DNA of 36,031 bases from an uncultured Thermoplasmatales archaeon (lineage in GTDB: Archaea > Thermoplasmatota > E2 > DHVEG-1), in the NCBI GenBank assembly GCA_964517155.1, contig CAZFAZ010000027.1:1-36031 (forward strand), given 5' to 3'. Made by a program: the position numbers and the translations under genes. This document shows, one piece after another, positions 6,040 through 19,800 of this stretch. The notes below the pieces were generated by a model. It saw only the letters and a program-made list of their open reading frames with translations, was not told the origin of the DNA and ran no database searches. The stretch's first letter is position 1. Every line of letters begins with the position of its first letter.

Positions 6040-7341
6040 ATGGTAGAAGTCTTTCCATTTAATGGTATAACCTACAACAAAGAAAAAATAAAAAAATTAG
6101 ATGATGTAATGTCACCACCATATGATATAATCTCTGAAGAGCAACAAGAAGAGCTGTATAACAAACATTCTAAAAACTATGTAAGATTAATATTAAACAA
6201 AATAAAACAAACTGACGATGATAAAGACAATAGATATACAAGAGCAAAAAAACTTTATGACGAATGGCTTGATGATATAACACTTATAAAATCTGATAAA
6301 CCGGCTATTTTTGCATATAAAATAGATTATGAACTTGAAAAAAGTAAAAAAACAATGAATGGTTTTTTTGTTTTATTAAAAATAGATCCAGAATACAAGC
6401 TTGTTAAAGCACATGAAAAAACACTTTCTAAGCCAAAAGCAGATAGATTAAACCTTATGCGTGCGTGTAAATCAAATCTTGAGCCGATACAGTTATTATA
6501 TATCGATGAAAAAGACAAAATTAGAAAAGCAATTGACAAAACTATAAAGACGCCAATAATTGATGTAAAAGGTTACGATGGATTCAAACATAGACTTTGG
6601 AAGGTAGATGATAAAGAAACAATTTCAGTTATACAAAATCAACTAAAAGATGAAATATTATTTATTGCAGATGGACATCATAGATATCAGACTGCTATAA
6701 ACTATGCAAATGAAATGAAAGAAAAAACAGGTGATAAAAGCAGTTCTGCACCGTTTAATTTTATTATGGTTATTCTTGCAAACATGTTTGATGAAGGTTT
6801 ATCAATTCTGCCGACTCATAGATTTATCAAAAAAAGCAATGTTGATATTAAAGATTCTTTAGACAAACTAAAAAAATATTTTACAGTTGAAGAAAAAACA
6901 GTTGATGCAGAAGAGGTACATGCTGTTAGTAAAAAGATTATGATAGATATTAAAACAAAAGATAAACATAAGTTTGCATTGTATACAAAAGATAAATATT
7001 ATGTTTTAACTTTAAAAGATGAAAAAGTAATGGACGAATTTGCATTTGATAGGTCAAAGACCTGGCGTACGCTTGATGTATCCATTCTTCATAAAATTGT
7101 TTTAGAAGAGATACTGAGTATAACTCAGGATAATCTTGAGGATCATGTAAAGTACACTCGTGTTGATGACGAGGCTGTAAAATTTGTAAACCAAGGAAAA
7201 TATGATTTTTCAGTTTTAATGAATGCAACAAAAATAAATGAGCTTAAAGCTATTGCTGATGCTGGGGAGCATATGCCTCAGAAATCTACTTATTTTCTCC
7301 CTAAGATGCTTTCAGGGCTTGTTTCTTATAAAATGGATTAA
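6040..7341 (+). CDS. DUF1015 family protein (ParB/sulfiredoxin-like)
   Basis: SPPYDII, HEKT, IADGHHRY, MPQKSTYFLPK..SGL; SD GGAGGT. Confidence 0.92.
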   Translation: MVEVFPFNGITYNKEKIKKLDDVMSPPYDIISEEQQEELYNKHSKNYVRLILNKIKQTDDDKDNRYTRAKKLYDEWLDDITLIKSDKPAIFAYKIDYELEKSKKTMNGFFVLLKIDPEYKLVKAHEKTLSKPKADRLNLMRACKSNLEPIQLLYIDEKDKIRKAIDKTIKTPIIDVKGYDGFKHRLWKVDDKETISVIQNQLKDEILFIADGHHRYQTAINYANEMKEKTGDKSSSAPFNFIMVILANMFDEGLSILPTHRFIKKSNVDIKDSLDKLKKYFTVEEKTVDAEEVHAVSKKIMIDIKTKDKHKFALYTKDKYYVLTLKDEKVMDEFAFDRSKTWRTLDVSILHKIVLEEILSITQDNLEDHVKYTRVDDEAVKFVNQGKYDFSVLMNATKINELKAIADAGEHMPQKSTYFLPKMLSGLVSYKMD

Positions 7342-7515
7342 AAATATATTTTTTCCAATTTATTTTATTTATAAAATTTGTTGTATAATTTTAATTATTT
7401 TTTCATTTTGACGTTTTTACTGAAAAGTATTAAATATTAGTAATGACAAATAATAACATGATATAGACTAACTATATCACTGTTAACCTTTTATTATAAA
7501 AGAGGTGAATTAAAA

Positions 7516-7575
7516 ATGTGTGAAAATATTGATCTAAATGTTTTTTCTTCTATGAATGTGGTGGTGAAAAAGTAA
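7516..7575 (+). CDS. 19-aa putative leader peptide
   Basis: MCENIDLNVFSSMNVVVKK preceded by a strong SD, GAGGTGA (7502-7508). Confidence 0.45.
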   Translation: MCENIDLNVFSSMNVVVKK

Positions 7576-7686
7576 ATGTCGGCCATGGTTATTATATTAA
7601 TAGGATTTATGGCTGGTTTAATGACTATGGCTACAGCAAGCGTATATAAATGGGCATTAAAATATTTCAATGAAGGATTCAAATAA
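7576..7686 (+). CDS. 36-aa single-TM hydrophobic peptide
   Basis: MSAMVIILIGFMAGLMTMATASVYKWALKYFNEGFK; ATG directly follows the upstream TAA; SD-like GTGGTGA inside the upstream ORF; basic/aromatic C-terminal tail. Confidence 0.6.
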   Translation: MSAMVIILIGFMAGLMTMATASVYKWALKYFNEGFK

Positions 7687-7747
7687 AAGCCATTAATTAT
7701 TTTATAAAAAGATATAAAGAAAAAAAAGAAAAATTATTTTGTTTTAT

Positions 7748-8176
7748 TTATTTTATTTTTGGAATTACTTTTTCTATATCTTCTGTTTTACCAGCATCCC
7801 AAATTGCTCTTATCGCTAAGAGACCTGCTGCTGGTGCAGCAAATATCGCTAATGTAAATGCAATATTTGCAAAGTATTGTCCAATTACGTCCAAGTTTGC
7901 AAAAGCTTGACCAGTTGCACCTATTCCAACTAATATTAGTGCTGCTATCAAAAATGTTGGGATTCTATCGTGTGTTATATTGCCTATTGCAAAGAACGAC
8001 AGTACTCCTACAACAAAGCCTAGCACAGCTAATGTTATAGATATGTATGTAGGATACATGACTGTTTGTGTTGTTGTATCATACCACATTTGCTGAGCTA
8101 CTAGTCCGACTATTACTGATATTAATATACCTATCAAAAATAGCCAACTTCCTATTTTCCTAAATATTGTTTCCAT
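7748..8176 (-). CDS. 4-TM membrane protein of unknown function (paralog of 22800-23243)
   Basis: Four hydrophobic segments; shares KxG...F..G, GxIT...PxFLIA and AIF..P...LA.+AIWD.GK with 22800-23243. Confidence 0.85.
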   Translation of the reverse strand: METIFRKIGSWLFLIGILISVIVGLVAQQMWYDTTTQTVMYPTYISITLAVLGFVVGVLSFFAIGNITHDRIPTFLIAALILVGIGATGQAFANLDVIGQYFANIAFTLAIFAAPAAGLLAIRAIWDAGKTEDIEKVIPKIK

Positions 8177-8408
8177 TTTTACATCCTCTCTCCTATATTT
8201 TTATTTTTAACATTTAAAACAATTAGATATTATTTAAATATTTAGTGTAAATGAACGTGCAGTTATATATGTAGATACTTACTCCTTTAAAAGATAAACT
8301 CTGTTATTTCGTCAATACGCGTATTTTACCATTTTGTCTTTTTAATAGCATATAGTTAAATACTATAAATGCCAAAAATTAAGATATTATCAGGTTTGGA
8401 GAGAATAA

Positions 8409-8567
8409 ATGTATAAAATAAATTATAAAACAGATGAAAAAAATGAAACAATTGAGATTAACGACTCTTTATTTCATATTGGAATGAGAAAAGGACTCAT
8501 TGAAAAAGATGGCGAAGAATACTTTTTCATAGGTGACTATGAAGAGCTTACAGCTTTTATAAGATAA
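8409..8567 (+). CDS. 52-aa acidic soluble protein, not in ORF track
   Basis: MYKINYKTDEKNETIEINDSLFHIGMRKGLIEKDGEEYFFIGDYEELTAFIR; SD GGAGAG; purine-rich coding-like composition. Confidence 0.7.
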   Translation: MYKINYKTDEKNETIEINDSLFHIGMRKGLIEKDGEEYFFIGDYEELTAFIR

Positions 8568-8589
8568 GATTTACATTGAACAAATAACC

Positions 8590-8665
8590 GTGGAGGGGGT
8601 CAAAGAATTTTAATTCACCTCTTCTTGCATTCATTGACCCTCTCTATTACCCCCTTATTTTTTTA
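8590..8665 (+). ncRNA. putative structured RNA element (hairpin with anti-SD loop) followed by a U-tract
   Basis: 8590-8603 pairs with 8634-8647 (14 bp, 3 G.U), one mismatch, then 8605-8608 with 8629-8632; the 20-nt loop contains UUCACCUC; G.U pairs imply the + strand. Confidence 0.55.
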
Positions 8666-8716
8666 TTAGAAAGATTTAAGTTTAAAATCTATATTTTATA
8701 TTAAAGTTGATGGGAT

Positions 8717-9025
8717 ATGAAAACAGTTATGATTATAGATGATGAATCACACATTTTATCAGATGTTAAATCATATTTAGAAAAAGATTTTCAAGTAATT
8801 ACAGCAGAAAATAACAGAGACGCCCTTGAAATGATTGAAAAACACAACAAAGATCTAGAACTGATACTAATAGATTCAAACATTCCAGATACAGAAATAC
8901 CTGCATTTTTCTCAATGAAACCAGATACTGACAAAAAGATAGACACAACAAAAACAGATGATTTTTTAATGAAACCATTTACACGTACACAACTAGTTGA
9001 TTTTGTAAAAAACAGATTGAAATAA
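8717..9025 (+). CDS. shortened/atypical response regulator receiver domain
   Basis: VMIIDDE, LILIDSNIPD, DDFLMKPF; only 102 aa, with the central alpha3-beta4 region shortened. Confidence 0.8.
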   Translation: MKTVMIIDDESHILSDVKSYLEKDFQVITAENNRDALEMIEKHNKDLELILIDSNIPDTEIPAFFSMKPDTDKKIDTTKTDDFLMKPFTRTQLVDFVKNRLK

Positions 9026-9055
9026 AAAAAATTATTTTTGGAGGGAAATTAAAAA

Positions 9056-9475
9056 ATGCAAAGTACTGAAAAGAAAAACGTTGTTTTTGCCAAACTTTTT
9101 CCAGGCGAAGATGTAAATAAAGAATTAATAGAACTATGCAAAAAACATAACATTGATTCAGGTGTTATCATCTCAGGAATCGGTCAATTTGAAAAAGTAG
9201 AACTAGGTTACTTCAAATGCAAAGGCGATTACTCACATGAAGTTTTTGAAAAACCTCTAGAAGTTTTATCCTTAAATGGCAACATATGCAAAATAGAAAA
9301 TGAATATGTTTTACATATACATGCGGTACTAAGTGACGATAAAAAAAATGCGATTGGTGGACATTTCATAAATGCAATTGTGAGTATAACCGGAGAAATC
9401 GTGATACTTAAAACAAATGTAGCCTTTAAAAGACAAACCGATGAAGAAACAGGACTTAAAAACATGGTTTTTTAA
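9056..9475 (+). CDS. PPC/DUF296 domain protein
   Basis: LFPGEDV, SGIG, LGYF, EVLSLNGNI, HIHAVL, GGH motifs. Confidence 0.92.
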   Translation: MQSTEKKNVVFAKLFPGEDVNKELIELCKKHNIDSGVIISGIGQFEKVELGYFKCKGDYSHEVFEKPLEVLSLNGNICKIENEYVLHIHAVLSDDKKNAIGGHFINAIVSITGEIVILKTNVAFKRQTDEETGLKNMVF

Positions 9476-16860: not shown

Positions 16861-19800
16861 TTGCTGCTTAAAAAACTAATGCTAGTATCTATAATATTAT
16901 TACTTTTTTTATCAAACATTAGTTTAATCGTTAACGCGCAGCAAGAAGAACCACCAATCTGGAATGCAAATTGGAAATACAGACAAGAAATAATATTGCC
17001 AATTTCAACAGATGACAAATATACAATATCTCAACCTATAGACATAGAAGTTAATTTTAAAAATTCTTGTTGGGGAAAAAGCAACGAACTAAATTCGATA
17101 CGTGTAGTCGTATGGAATGGACAAAATTGGCAGGAAATCGAATCACAAGTATATGACACAGTATTTGAAAAAAATAAAGACATTATAAAAAAATGTGGAT
17201 TGGTTTTTTTAATACCAGCTTTTGCCAATGGTAAAGAAAGATATTTTGTATATTATGACAGCCATGAAAAAGAGGCTGCATCATATACCGATCATGTATC
17301 TATAGAAGATTCATACTATTATTATGAACCAATCTCTAGCATCTCAGCTGAAGGTGATTACTATAAGATAACTGAAGATGGATATGTAGTATTTGGCGTT
17401 GGTCAAAAAGGAAAAGTTCTTTATCGGAGTCTATCAAACAATGTTGTAAAAATGAAACCTGGCTCAAAAGAGTTTGGCATAACAAACTCTGAAAGTACAG
17501 TTTCATTTAGTTTTGCTTATCATAAAGGATTTGAAGATAAAGATGAAATATCATCTGATCAGAAACTTGTTTCAAAAAATATAAACATAGATGGAAATCT
17601 AATGGTTGAATTTGTAATAATAAGTGAATCAGATGATAAAAATCTAAGAACTACAGTTGTTTACAAATACTACTATTGTCCAACTGAGAACAAAAGAATA
17701 AATGCTAATGTCAAACATCAAGTCTTTGAAGAATGTACAGTTAAAGGACTTACAGATGTAGATGGAAGATATGGTGCAATTATCTCTTATCAATCTAAAA
17801 GTGAACGTATAGAAAAAATGCGTTTTGGTGAGATATATCCGTTTTTACATGTATACAGTGAAGAGGGAAGCATAAAAGAATACAATATTAACACCAACCC
17901 GAAGGGAAAAGAAAGAGAATGGATAATATCCTCCAAAGATGAATGCACACTTGGTGAAAACGCCTGGTTTTCATATGATGAAGGAGAAAAAGGACTTGCT
18001 CAAGGAGTTATTTTTTCACAAAATAAAAATATAGTAAAATACCCCGAAAATGAAATAGACGGAATACAAATAAAAGTTGCAGAAAAAGAAATATTAAATG
18101 CAATAGGTACTAAAATGGATTATGCTGCAATAAACTTTGGACGCAATTCTTACAAAAATGGTGTACATGACCTTGTTATACCTGCAGGTTTTACAGTTGA
18201 ATACGATGCAGTATTTTTTACAACCCAAACTGGAGGTTATCCTGAAATAGCAAAGGAAAGCACAATATATCAAACTCTTATAAAACATAGATACAAGCAA
18301 GAATGGGATTCAGATGGACAAGAAGATAGAAATATCTACACACTAAAAGTTATTCCTCGTTTTACTGCAAGGCTTTTTTCACATCCCTTTTTTTCAGAAA
18401 TAACTAATCTAAACCTTTCAGAAATTTATGCTGAACTATACAAAAATGGAGAATACATATGTACAGGTCATACTCAAAAAATATTAATTGGTGCACCAAA
18501 AATTATATTTCCAAAGCTTTCAGAAGGAGAATACTTCATAAAGATTATGAGGAAAAAAAGTAACGATGAATTAAGTTTCATAGGATTTGAAAAAGTCAAT
18601 ATTTCAACTGATAAAGATGTCGATATTTTCTGCACCTGGCCAAGAGATATACAAATTCAGATAACTGATCAAAAAAATCAAAAAATAAAAGATGTACAAC
18701 TTGTGATATATTCAAATAACACAATTATTTGCTCTAATCTTTCAAATGAGGTCGATGAAAATATTTTTACAGTTCCCTTCAAATTTTTTAAAACATATAC
18801 TTTAGAAGGCGTATACAAAGGTTTTAAAGTTATTAATTATGAAATTCCTATATTAAAAAATAAAATAGAGCAATCCTTTGAGGTATATGACTTATCTTTT
18901 GATATACGAGATACATATGGTTTTACGCCGGGAGTAGATGCTAAGATATATCTGATAAGCAATGACATGATTTTACCATTTGAAATATATCCTCAAGAGA
19001 TAGGAAATGGAAAATATTTATTTGAAAAAATACCAGCAGCAGATTATAATCTTTACATATTATATGCAAGTTACTCTCAGGTTTTTCCTATTAAAATACC
19101 ATCTGAAAAAGAAATTTTAGATATTACCTTTGAAGCAATTTATAAACTAGAAACATCTCTTTTTGATTCAAGAGGAAATGCTATTGAGAAAAATGAAAGA
19201 CACCTTGCAATTTACAGAGAATCAATAAAGATAACAGATAATATCTCACCAGACAAAATAATTTCTCTTCCGCCTGGAGAATATAATATTTATGTTTATG
19301 AAAAACAAGATGTAATTGGTTTTAAAAATATTTTTTTAACAAATGATAGAAAAATAAATATTGTTACAAACGTTAAATCTATTATTCCAAATATTATAAC
19401 TGTTTTATCAATTATATTTATAATACAAATTATTGTTTTACTGCTTTTCAAGAAAATCTCTTTGAATTCATTTTTGAAACTATTAACGCTCAGCCTTATA
19501 TTATTATCAATTATGCTGCCCTGGTGGTCGCTATATGCCTCAAATGCTGAAATAAACGCCGAAAAAACAATTGAAATGTTTTTATCGCCTGCTTCAATGA
19601 TTGAAGAAATTAGTTATAAAAACATAGTTTATCGCGATATGGCAAACATACCTGATATCTTTACAAATTTTTTAAATGGACTTGCAGTAATATTATGCGC
19701 AGGTTTTGTTTTAATAAGCCTAAGTTTCATACCAAACATAATTTATAAGAAAAGATTTGCTTTGATTTTGATTGTCGGAAGTATCTTGTTTTTAATTCTT

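Follow-up and report, generated by a model that had tools for sequence, protein, structure and literature searches.

Background

To our knowledge, few archaeal small RNAs (sRNAs) have a known target, and none is known from the uncultured Thermoplasmatota-type lineages considered in this article. The DNA analyzed here is a 36,031-nucleotide (nt) stretch, referred to below as the window, of contig CAZFAZ010000027.1 (assembly GCA_964517155.1) from an uncultured Thermoplasmatales archaeon, and the element in question is a hairpin at 8590–8647 of its + strand. The hairpin lies just downstream of a gene for a 52-amino-acid (aa) protein; farther upstream are a 19-codon leader open reading frame (ORF) and a gene for a 36-aa hydrophobic peptide. 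Our comparison of related genomes indicates that an sRNA not described before, conserved across a family of uncultured archaea, is built around this hairpin. The partner with which the loop has co-evolved is, on this evidence, not the ribosome-binding site (RBS) of the nearby leader but that of a DUF6015 gene in another part of the genome. A preliminary description, made from the sequence of the window alone, had proposed the leader as the target and a type I toxin-antitoxin module of the hok/mok/sok type as one possible reading.

The sRNA162 of Methanosarcina mazei base-pairs in trans and masks the predicted RBS of an mRNA (PMC3510493). The element described here resembles sRNA162 in that a single-stranded region of an archaeal sRNA would lie over the RBS of its target, and sRNA162 also has a second target that it reaches through a different part of the molecule (PMC3510493). 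The sRNA162 pairs through a linker and is not the 3' end of an mRNA, whereas the sRNA considered here would pair through a hairpin loop; the target of sRNA162 was tested at the bench, whereas the DUF6015 target is predicted from genome comparison (PMC3510493). The two RNAs have no sequence relation, as judged from the negative result with Rfam, and their hosts belong to different phylum-level lineages.

The enterobacterial sRNAs that derive from the 3' untranslated region (UTR) of an mRNA depend on Hfq and RNase E. In bacterial RNAs of this kind, for example the one from glutamine synthetase mRNA, the terminator-proximal end of an mRNA serves as a base-pairing regulator of other mRNAs, and conservation of this regulatory part can exceed that of the coding sequence; in both respects the hairpin resembles them (PMC9731577). 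It differs from the enterobacterial cases in its archaeal host and in that the ORF is lost in many relatives, which would leave a stand-alone RNA. The feature of a 3' UTR-derived sRNA that is seen here is the position of the stop codon of the 52-aa gene near the stem, and a shared 3' end and co-transcription are predicted from it.

In Staphylococcus, a C/U-rich seed loop of the Gram-positive sRNA RsaE pairs with Shine-Dalgarno sequences. The likeness to this type consists in an unpaired pyrimidine-rich loop motif, together with a C-run in an unpaired tail, facing purine-rich RBSs. The sequence and lineage of RsaE are unrelated to those described here, and the seed here continues on its 3' side into a portion that is specific to one gene and co-varies with that single target. 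In the hok/mok/sok system, the gene for Sok overlaps that of its target on the opposite strand, and mok overlaps hok. Our locus shares with that system a short leader ORF ahead of a small hydrophobic peptide and, in this genome only, an RNA complementary to the leader RBS. Unlike Sok, however, the sRNA is located 1.1 kb downstream of the leader, on the same strand and beyond a gene for a 142-aa protein; the leader stop codon abuts the peptide ATG instead of overlapping the peptide gene, and the peptide has its own Shine-Dalgarno sequence; the complementarity is not conserved; and the peptide is a syntenic, family-wide gene. Judged from genome comparison, the sRNA would work most like a trans-acting, RBS-masking RNA derived from an mRNA 3' end, in a lineage without cultured representatives.

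The hairpin and its conservation

The hairpin and the tail that follows it consist of these parts:

8590–8647, + strand: small-RNA hairpin with 5' arm 8590–8607, loop 8608–8629 and 3' arm 8630–8647 (covariance model, covariation and fold)
8613–8627, + strand: ATTCACCTCTTCTTG, the most conserved core of the loop (alignment of 78 matches)
8649–8667, + strand: unpaired C-run ACCCCC (8649–8654) and T-rich tract (8655–8667) (alignment)

The minimum free energy (MFE) fold of the + strand is a hairpin of 14+4 bp with a 20-nt loop (8609–8628) and an energy of −23.0 kcal/mol. Its z-score is −2.72, and 3 of 200 shuffled sequences fold equally well, compared to a z-score of −0.50 and 55 of 200 shuffles for the − strand. 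By DNA comparison, the region 8570–8720 is 73–85% conserved in relatives, more than the flanking 52-aa ORF. Two covariance models were built, one from three close sequences and another from 32 aligned hits. The second model matched the hairpin in 30 of 40 genera, 33 of 42 high-quality genomes and altogether 78 of the 108 genomes of the family, a count that includes the five weakest matches (G009, G077, G078, G115 and G015), which lack the loop motif and are held doubtful. The hairpin is nearly always present in a single copy per genome in the search of the family, and the order-wide search did not find it in two sister families (0 of 8 and 0 of 2 genomes).

Compensatory, double-sided changes occur at all 18 of the stem pairs in the alignment of the 78 sequences. 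The proportion of alignment cells that pair is 83.8%, as opposed to 54–60% when the partner arm is slid out of register, and none of 500 shuffles reached as high a value. Among the stem cells there are 116 G.U or U.G combinations compared to 40 A.C or C.A combinations, in an alignment that was fitted to the + strand model and therefore somewhat favours the + strand outcome. The excess of G.U pairs, taken together with the comparison of the folds of the two strands, argues for the + strand. The preliminary description had pointed to a G.U-containing hairpin on the + strand, and the covariation, the G.U pairs and the poor fold of the − strand all agree with it.

While the sequence of the stem varies across the matches, the loop is constant: among the 78 aligned matches CCTCTTC is present in 72, CCTCTTCTTG in 64 and the full 15-mer ATTCACCTCTTCTTG in 27. 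The TCACCTC of the loop is identical to the core of the 16S rRNA 3' end, GGAUCACCUCCU, where the 16S sequence was taken from one genome of the family. The loop is thus, on the evidence of the alignment, a conserved single-stranded sequence that resembles the anti-Shine-Dalgarno end of 16S rRNA. The features expected of the seed of a trans-acting sRNA are present, in that the loop is unpaired in the MFE fold and its core is conserved.

A C-run of at least 4 follows the hairpin in 52 of the 78 matches, and a T-run of at least 4 is found near the 3' end in 54 of them. Oligo-T terminates transcription in archaea, and the C-run and T-tract at 8649–8667 are likely the 3' end and termination signal of the RNA. 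A scan for terminators and promoters reported no terminator-like site, by rules that cover only loops of 3–8 nt and bacterial promoters and that are hence uninformative here. Rfam contains nothing that matches the hairpin, or the leader and peptide element, at E ≤10; four weak Rfam matches within 7000–9200 fall outside the hairpin and have scores far below the gathering scores.

With a plain MAFFT alignment as input, RNAalifold did not recover the main stem and paired the 5' arm with the loop, whereas the structure-guided alignments favour the long hairpin. In that alternative fold (8590–8626), GGAGGGG of the 5' arm pairs with CCUCUUC of the loop. Since three CU-rich segments could compete for a single G-rich arm, the RNA might conceivably switch between folds.

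Predicted transcription unit of the hairpin

Upstream and downstream of the hairpin the following features were identified:

8330–8362, + strand: promoter-like region of the 52-aa gene and sRNA unit, CATTTTGTC followed by TAGTTAAATA (element conserved in relatives, predicted promoter)
8409–8567, + strand: 52-aa ORF, which belongs in shortened form to a small conserved protein family of 52–88 aa that contains LFEIALRKGLIEKTDDGYVFVGDYEELLAFK (homologues in relatives)
8669–9025, + strand: promoter-like GAAAGATTTAAGTTTA (8669–8684) and the gene of a single-domain response regulator (8717–9025; Response_reg, E 1.4e-9)

The stop codon of the 52-aa gene is located 23 nt 5' of the stem in the window. 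In 13 of 32 loci the hairpin is immediately preceded by a homologue of 52–88 aa, which ends 4–43 nt before the start of the model. The hairpin occurs without this ORF in the other 19 loci, including those of both same-genus genomes, G001 and G002, and in the ORF-less loci a promoter-like element (a CATTTTGAC-type motif and a TATA sequence) is found 40–60 nt upstream of the hairpin. Because the hairpin is retained where the ORF is gone, with a promoter-like element still ahead of it, it appears to belong to the 3' end of the 52-aa unit and to have outlived the ORF. The 13 loci and the promoter-like element support the suggestion of the preliminary description that the regulator derives from the 3' UTR of the 52-aa gene, with co-transcription of the two as a prediction. 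Downstream of the hairpin, many loci have a response-regulator gene, but at least 6 of 32 have a different one; since the downstream gene varies, the response-regulator gene is placed outside the conserved unit.

Neither Pfam nor NCBIfam assigns the 52-aa protein to a family, none of three longer homologues had a Pfam match above the cut-off, and no similarity was found between the 52-aa protein and the DUF6015 protein. In other genera the homologues extend to a C-terminal SFEWLD, with a TGA stop codon 4–9 nt before the start of the model. At 8556–8585 the window still reads GAT TTA CAT TGA in this place, downstream of its own earlier TAA.

Complementarity between the loop and the DUF6015 RBS

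One segment of the loop has an exact complement ahead of a gene elsewhere in the genome:

8617–8631, + strand: ACCTCTTCTTGCATT, exact complement of AATGCAAGAAGAGGT upstream of the DUF6015 ATG (duplex and conservation)

The sequence AATGCAAGAAGAGGT is found at 16895–16909 of contig C43, 8–22 nt upstream of the ATG (16918) of a gene assigned to DUF6015 (PF19479, E 3.7e-23), the sole DUF6015 gene of its genome. Within this genome, the 15-mer AATGCAAGAAGAGGT and the 10-mer CAAGAAGAGG are confined to the loop and the DUF6015 RBS, and the predicted duplex between the two (−24.2 kcal/mol) is the best that the loop can form with any of 1523 crudely defined RBS windows. DUF6015 is present in 105 of the 108 genomes of the family, and the protein is 81–92% identical in the 29 best-matching relatives, which represent many genera.

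Conservation of the pairing was evaluated in the 63 genomes in which the loop motif occurs together with the RBS of an orthologous DUF6015 gene. GAAGAGG, with at most one mismatch, is located 7–13 nt before the DUF6015 ATG in 38 of them, from 21 genera. When each loop is paired with the RBS of its own genome, 39 of 62 duplexes reach −16.1 kcal/mol or better, which is the 1st percentile of the background of the genome of the window; the mean of the own pairs is −17.67 kcal/mol compared to −16.59 kcal/mol after permutation, and none of 20000 permutations was as good (n=62). The six positions that flank the core pair in 198 of 228 cells, as opposed to 187.8 in permuted combinations (p 0.00085, Watson-Crick and G.U pairs), and the corresponding values for Watson-Crick pairs only are 175 and 159.9 (p 0.00025). 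At the most variable position, where the loop has C or U and the target G or A, the combinations are C-G in 19 genomes, U-A in 10, U.G in 5 and a mismatch in 4 (Fisher 0.0008). In genome G002 two loop bases and the two target bases that face them have both changed, and two genomes of one genus (G051 and G052) differ as U-A and C-G. These changes in trans indicate that the loop has co-evolved with the RBS of DUF6015.

The 15-nt loop core ATTCACCTCTTCTTG was also tried as a seed for a perfect trans target in the genome of the window; there is none, the best match has 2 mismatches, and the DUF6015 partner is offset from this core by 4 nt.

Several further observations concern DUF6015 genes. In the RBS regions of DUF6015 paralogues from other genomes (L228–L247), a G-run of at least 5 was counted by eye in 13 of 20, and such runs occur in 56 of the 1523 RBS windows of the genome of the window. 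The C-run ACCCCC at 8649–8654 may, from its sequence, be a second seed for RBSs with G-runs. Two of the weak model matches, from one genus (L151, G009:C1:401787-401930, and L153, G077:C74:14038-14181), form a hairpin with a different CU-rich loop that contains ACATCTCTCCTCACC; it lies about 250 nt upstream of a DUF6015 gene in divergent orientation, and the leader of that gene carries a GAGAGAT complementary to the loop. This hairpin may be a diverged relative of the sRNA or a chance match. On contig C43 (12214–18605), the DUF6015 gene is flanked, with the neighbours assigned by eye, on one side by a 1124-aa rpoB-like ORF and an 87-aa ORF, which we take to be RNA polymerase subunits, and on the other by what is presumably a gene related to S-adenosylmethionine synthetase. 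The DUF6015 protein has a weak TFIIE-alpha-like match in Pfam (E 0.025), which hints at a winged-helix fold.

Complementarity between the loop and the leader RBS

The elements that the preliminary description had placed in a single module with the hairpin are these:

7500–7515, + strand: 16-mer in front of the leader ORF, consisting of its Shine-Dalgarno sequence and spacer, with complementarity to the 5' portion of the loop (sequence and genome search)
7516–7575, + strand: leader ORF of 19 codons and TAA, MCENIDLNVFSSMNVVVKK (conserved in relatives)
7576–7686, + strand: gene of the 36-aa hydrophobic peptide, MSAMVIILIGFMAGLMTMATASVYKWALKYFNEGFK (ORF; homologues found with tblastn)

As that description had stated, AAGAGGTGAATTAAAA at 7500–7515 of the + strand has a perfect 16-nt reverse complement at 8608–8623, 15 nt of which are inside the loop of the MFE fold, and the 16-mer ends directly at the ATG of the 19-codon ORF, which is followed by the 36-aa ORF. 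It had also called for a genome-wide count of the 16-mer, and these two are the only copies in the assembly of 1,585,476 bases when up to one mismatch is allowed. The genome contains 9 exact inverted pairs of at least 16 nt that are spaced within 1.5 kb, where about 4 genome-wide and about 0.1 per 36-kb window would be expected by chance, as estimated from base composition. Nine of the 16 nucleotides are AAGAGGTGA, which occurs 14 times in the genome, and we estimate the odds that the other seven bases, all A or T, match as well at roughly 1–5%. The match is unusual, yet not beyond chance, and for this reason conservation is the deciding test.

From genome to genome the leader has different RBSs, among them GAGGGGAAT, AAGGGGAG, GAGGCTCAC and GAAGGAAAA, while the loop remains constant. 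The longest Watson-Crick run between the loop and the leader RBS of the same genome is 16 nt here, 11, 11, 9 and 8 nt in four genomes and 3–7 nt in the remaining 20 of 25 scored loci. In the same-genus genomes G001 and G002 the duplex has only −11.3 and −8.4 kcal/mol, compared to −20.8 kcal/mol in the window. The own duplexes average −12.15 kcal/mol and permuted ones −12.11 kcal/mol (p 0.45, n=24). Covariation between loop and RBS in relatives, which the preliminary description had named as a check, is thus absent for the leader, and the match is degraded in the same-genus genomes. The ranking of RBS partners, another such check, had a divided outcome: the leader RBS is a strong partner, second against the 1523 crude windows, and the best one is that of DUF6015. 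The comparison suggests that the leader is at most a recent, lineage-specific secondary target, or else that its complementarity is a by-product.

The leader and peptide themselves are conserved as an adjacent pair, as had been described. A homologue of the peptide was detected with tblastn in 28 of the 32 hairpin loci, on the same strand and 0.26–1.2 kb upstream of the hairpin (0.68–1.2 kb in 27 of the 28). A leader-type ORF of 12–24 codons that starts with ATG was scored in 24 of the 28 syntenic loci, two further loci have ACG at the position of the leader start, and the leader stop codon, which abuts the peptide ATG in the window, is separated from it by 0–1 nt in all scored loci but one (9 nt). 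The sequence of the leader is free except for its end (VV.K), which encodes the conserved Shine-Dalgarno sequence GGTGGTG of the peptide ORF; in the window the last codons contain GGTGGTGA (7560–7567) in this role. The abutting stop and start codons fit translational coupling, but the peptide has its own conserved Shine-Dalgarno sequence; the two ORFs form a conserved operon, in which translation is probably coupled. Neither product matches a family in Pfam or NCBIfam, including the toxin families. The peptide gene is single-copy where seen and syntenic across genera, and the hok/mok/sok-type toxin-antitoxin module is accordingly left unsupported.

We also note that the leader has exactly 19 codons in 18 of the 24 loci (L007–L044), despite its free sequence outside the last five codons. 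A constant length suggests a constraint on distance or ribosome position, not on the peptide.

Proposed function and alternative explanations

We propose, with a probability of roughly 0.6, that the hairpin, C-run and T-tract constitute a trans-acting, RBS-masking sRNA from the 52-aa unit whose partner is the DUF6015 RBS, and that the leader and peptide operon is separate. Sequence, structure, covariation, distribution and complementarity are established by the analyses above, and from these we infer transcription start and end, processing and repression. The sRNA would arise by + strand transcription of the 52-aa unit, as the 3' end of the mRNA in this genome and as a stand-alone RNA of about 130 nt in the ORF-less relatives. 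Its apical loop of 20–22 nt would present a mimic of the anti-Shine-Dalgarno sequence with a specific 3' extension, CUUCUUGCA. In this model the loop has three modules: a U-run that would face an A-rich spacer, UCACCUC that would face the Shine-Dalgarno sequence, and CUUCUUGCA that would face bases particular to each gene, on the upstream side of the Shine-Dalgarno sequence. The last two modules, which are the constant ones, would be engaged by the DUF6015 mRNA, whereas the leader of the window would engage the first two, and the U-run side of these differs from genome to genome. In the DUF6015 mRNA a duplex of 14–15 bp would cover the Shine-Dalgarno sequence and most likely block the initiation of translation, an effect that was shown for sRNA162 (PMC3510493). 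The leader and peptide operon would stand apart from the sRNA and would not be a toxin-antitoxin system.

Several results weigh against this proposal. The covariation becomes weaker when one genome per genus is used (median p 0.012, worst resample 0.20); the relatives are not independent, and the 38 genomes in which pairing was followed were chosen by the presence of the core motif. In 25 of the 63 genomes, every member of genus g18 among them, the motif is missing from the best DUF6015 orthologue though the loop is unchanged, and the DUF6015 paralogues also lack GAAGAGG. Because orthologues and paralogues without the motif coexist with an unchanged loop, other or additional targets must, on this sequence evidence, exist; a common extra target in genus g18 was not found with the 12-mer AAGAAGAGGTGA, whose extra matches were heterogeneous and mostly within ORFs. 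The RBS background consists of crude ORF-based start calls from one genome. The leader RBS is the second-best predicted partner of the loop in its own genome, and 6 of 24 leader RBSs pair at −16.1 kcal/mol or better, compared to about 1% of background RBSs, so that a secondary interaction may be real; the Shine-Dalgarno sequence of these six leaders is strong and of the AAGAGGTG type. Finally, two metatranscriptome contig sets from one study match 7841–8145 identically, inside the 142-aa gene, so that the organism or a near-identical strain is present in an RNA library; of the region 7350–9050 these contigs span this segment alone, and the start, end, strand and processing of the sRNA are predictions from comparative data.

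The explanation given in the preliminary description, in which the loop pairs with the leader RBS and controls the leader and, by coupling, the 36-aa peptide, either as an sRNA system or as a type I toxin-antitoxin-like module, has in its favour the 16-nt complement that is unique in the genome, a second place among 1523+1 RBS partners, the six strongly pairing leaders, and the abutting stop and start codons that fit coupling. An 11-nt exact match in a genome of another genus (G049) can be extended by hand through a G.U pair, and the peptide homologue and the hairpin stay about 0.3–1.2 kb apart in 28 of 32 loci. Linkage alone is uninformative, however, since the whole neighbourhood is syntenic, and the complementarity is lost in the two same-genus genomes and reduced to runs of 3–7 nt in 20 of 25 loci, with no preference for own pairs (p 0.45). 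The loop bases that pair with the leader alone (UUUUAAU) are the variable part of the loop, whereas the constant part is explained by DUF6015, and a peptide gene that is conserved across genera and single-copy where seen is unlike typical type I toxins. We therefore regard this explanation as unlikely. A combined form, in which one loop carries two seeds, is a less probable variant still: a dual-function mRNA and regulator would use the constant 3' half of its loop for DUF6015, a family-wide target that may be a winged-helix regulator, while the variable 5' half would have captured, in this genome, the leader that gates the membrane peptide, and the C-run tail would perhaps serve as a third seed for the G-run RBSs of DUF6015 paralogues. 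The predicted duplex of the C-run tail with the leader RBS of the window has −5.2 kcal/mol, about the background median. If such a combined form were true, the 5' half of the loop would be free to capture targets lineage by lineage.

The hairpin could also be a mere 3'-end structure that serves termination or mRNA stability, with a protein bound to the loop and complementarity to RBSs as a side effect of the likeness to the 16S rRNA 3' end. Its position right after a stop codon and ahead of a T-tract would be natural for such a structure, the loop does resemble the end of 16S rRNA, and 25 of 63 genomes have no complementary DUF6015 RBS though their loop is unchanged. But the hairpin outlives the ORF in 19 of 32 loci, the pairing with DUF6015 extends 6 nt past the anti-Shine-Dalgarno-like core, and compensatory changes in trans with an RBS are not expected of a protein-binding site, which in our judgment makes this explanation decidedly improbable. 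Even less can be said for a cis-acting leader or attenuator of the response-regulator gene at 8717–9025, which we give very little credence: the hairpin is 70 nt upstream of that gene and adjacent to it in many relatives, yet a conserved element that resembles a transcription factor B recognition element (BRE) and TATA box (8669–8684) separates the two, at least 6 of 32 loci have another gene after the hairpin, and by eye no conserved pairing with the response-regulator RBS was seen.

The case illustrates that comparative genomics alone can define a family of RNAs together with its structure and strand and can point to a candidate target through compensatory changes in trans. For DUF6015, a family that is nearly universal in these genomes and has no assigned function, the RNA would offer a first lead to its role; the term DUF6015 was not found in a limited literature search, and a description in a subscription journal is possible. 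The case also serves as a warning, in that a perfect, genome-unique 16-nt complement located nearby is not the conserved interaction.

Other features of the locus

The remaining features belong to the leader and peptide operon or lie between the two units:

7404–7436, + strand: promoter-like region of the leader and peptide operon, CATTTTGAC (7404–7412) and BRE/TATA-like GAAAAGTATTAAATA (7422–7436) (conserved in relatives)
7457–7482, + strand: 5'-leader hairpin in which GATATAG (7460–7466) pairs with CTATATC (7472–7478), just after the initiator-like motif ATAACATG (sequence; conserved in the loci of relatives)
7748–8176, − strand: gene of a 142-aa membrane protein between the two units (ORF; conserved in relatives)

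The motifs at 7404–7436 read as a putative archaeal promoter. The 142-aa membrane protein has no real family match in Pfam or NCBIfam.

The motif CATTTTGAC together with a TATA sequence was considered as evidence for co-regulation of the two units and rejected, being present at 10 or more other loci of the genome and hence generic. The recurrent architecture consists of a T-rich tract, CATTTTGAC, about 10 nt, a TATA-like TTTAAATA and then ATAACATG about 20 nt downstream. It is found in the window at 7400–7482 and 8330–8395 and elsewhere in the genome at C78:8492, C74:4693, C77:18171, C38:2344, C36:14319, C41:26469, C1:19294, C32:24705, C68:2262 and C55:3046. It may represent an upstream element of general use or a site recognized by a global factor. 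Very small ORFs often follow this architecture, and a short 5' hairpin would stand at the start of several of the transcripts predicted from it.

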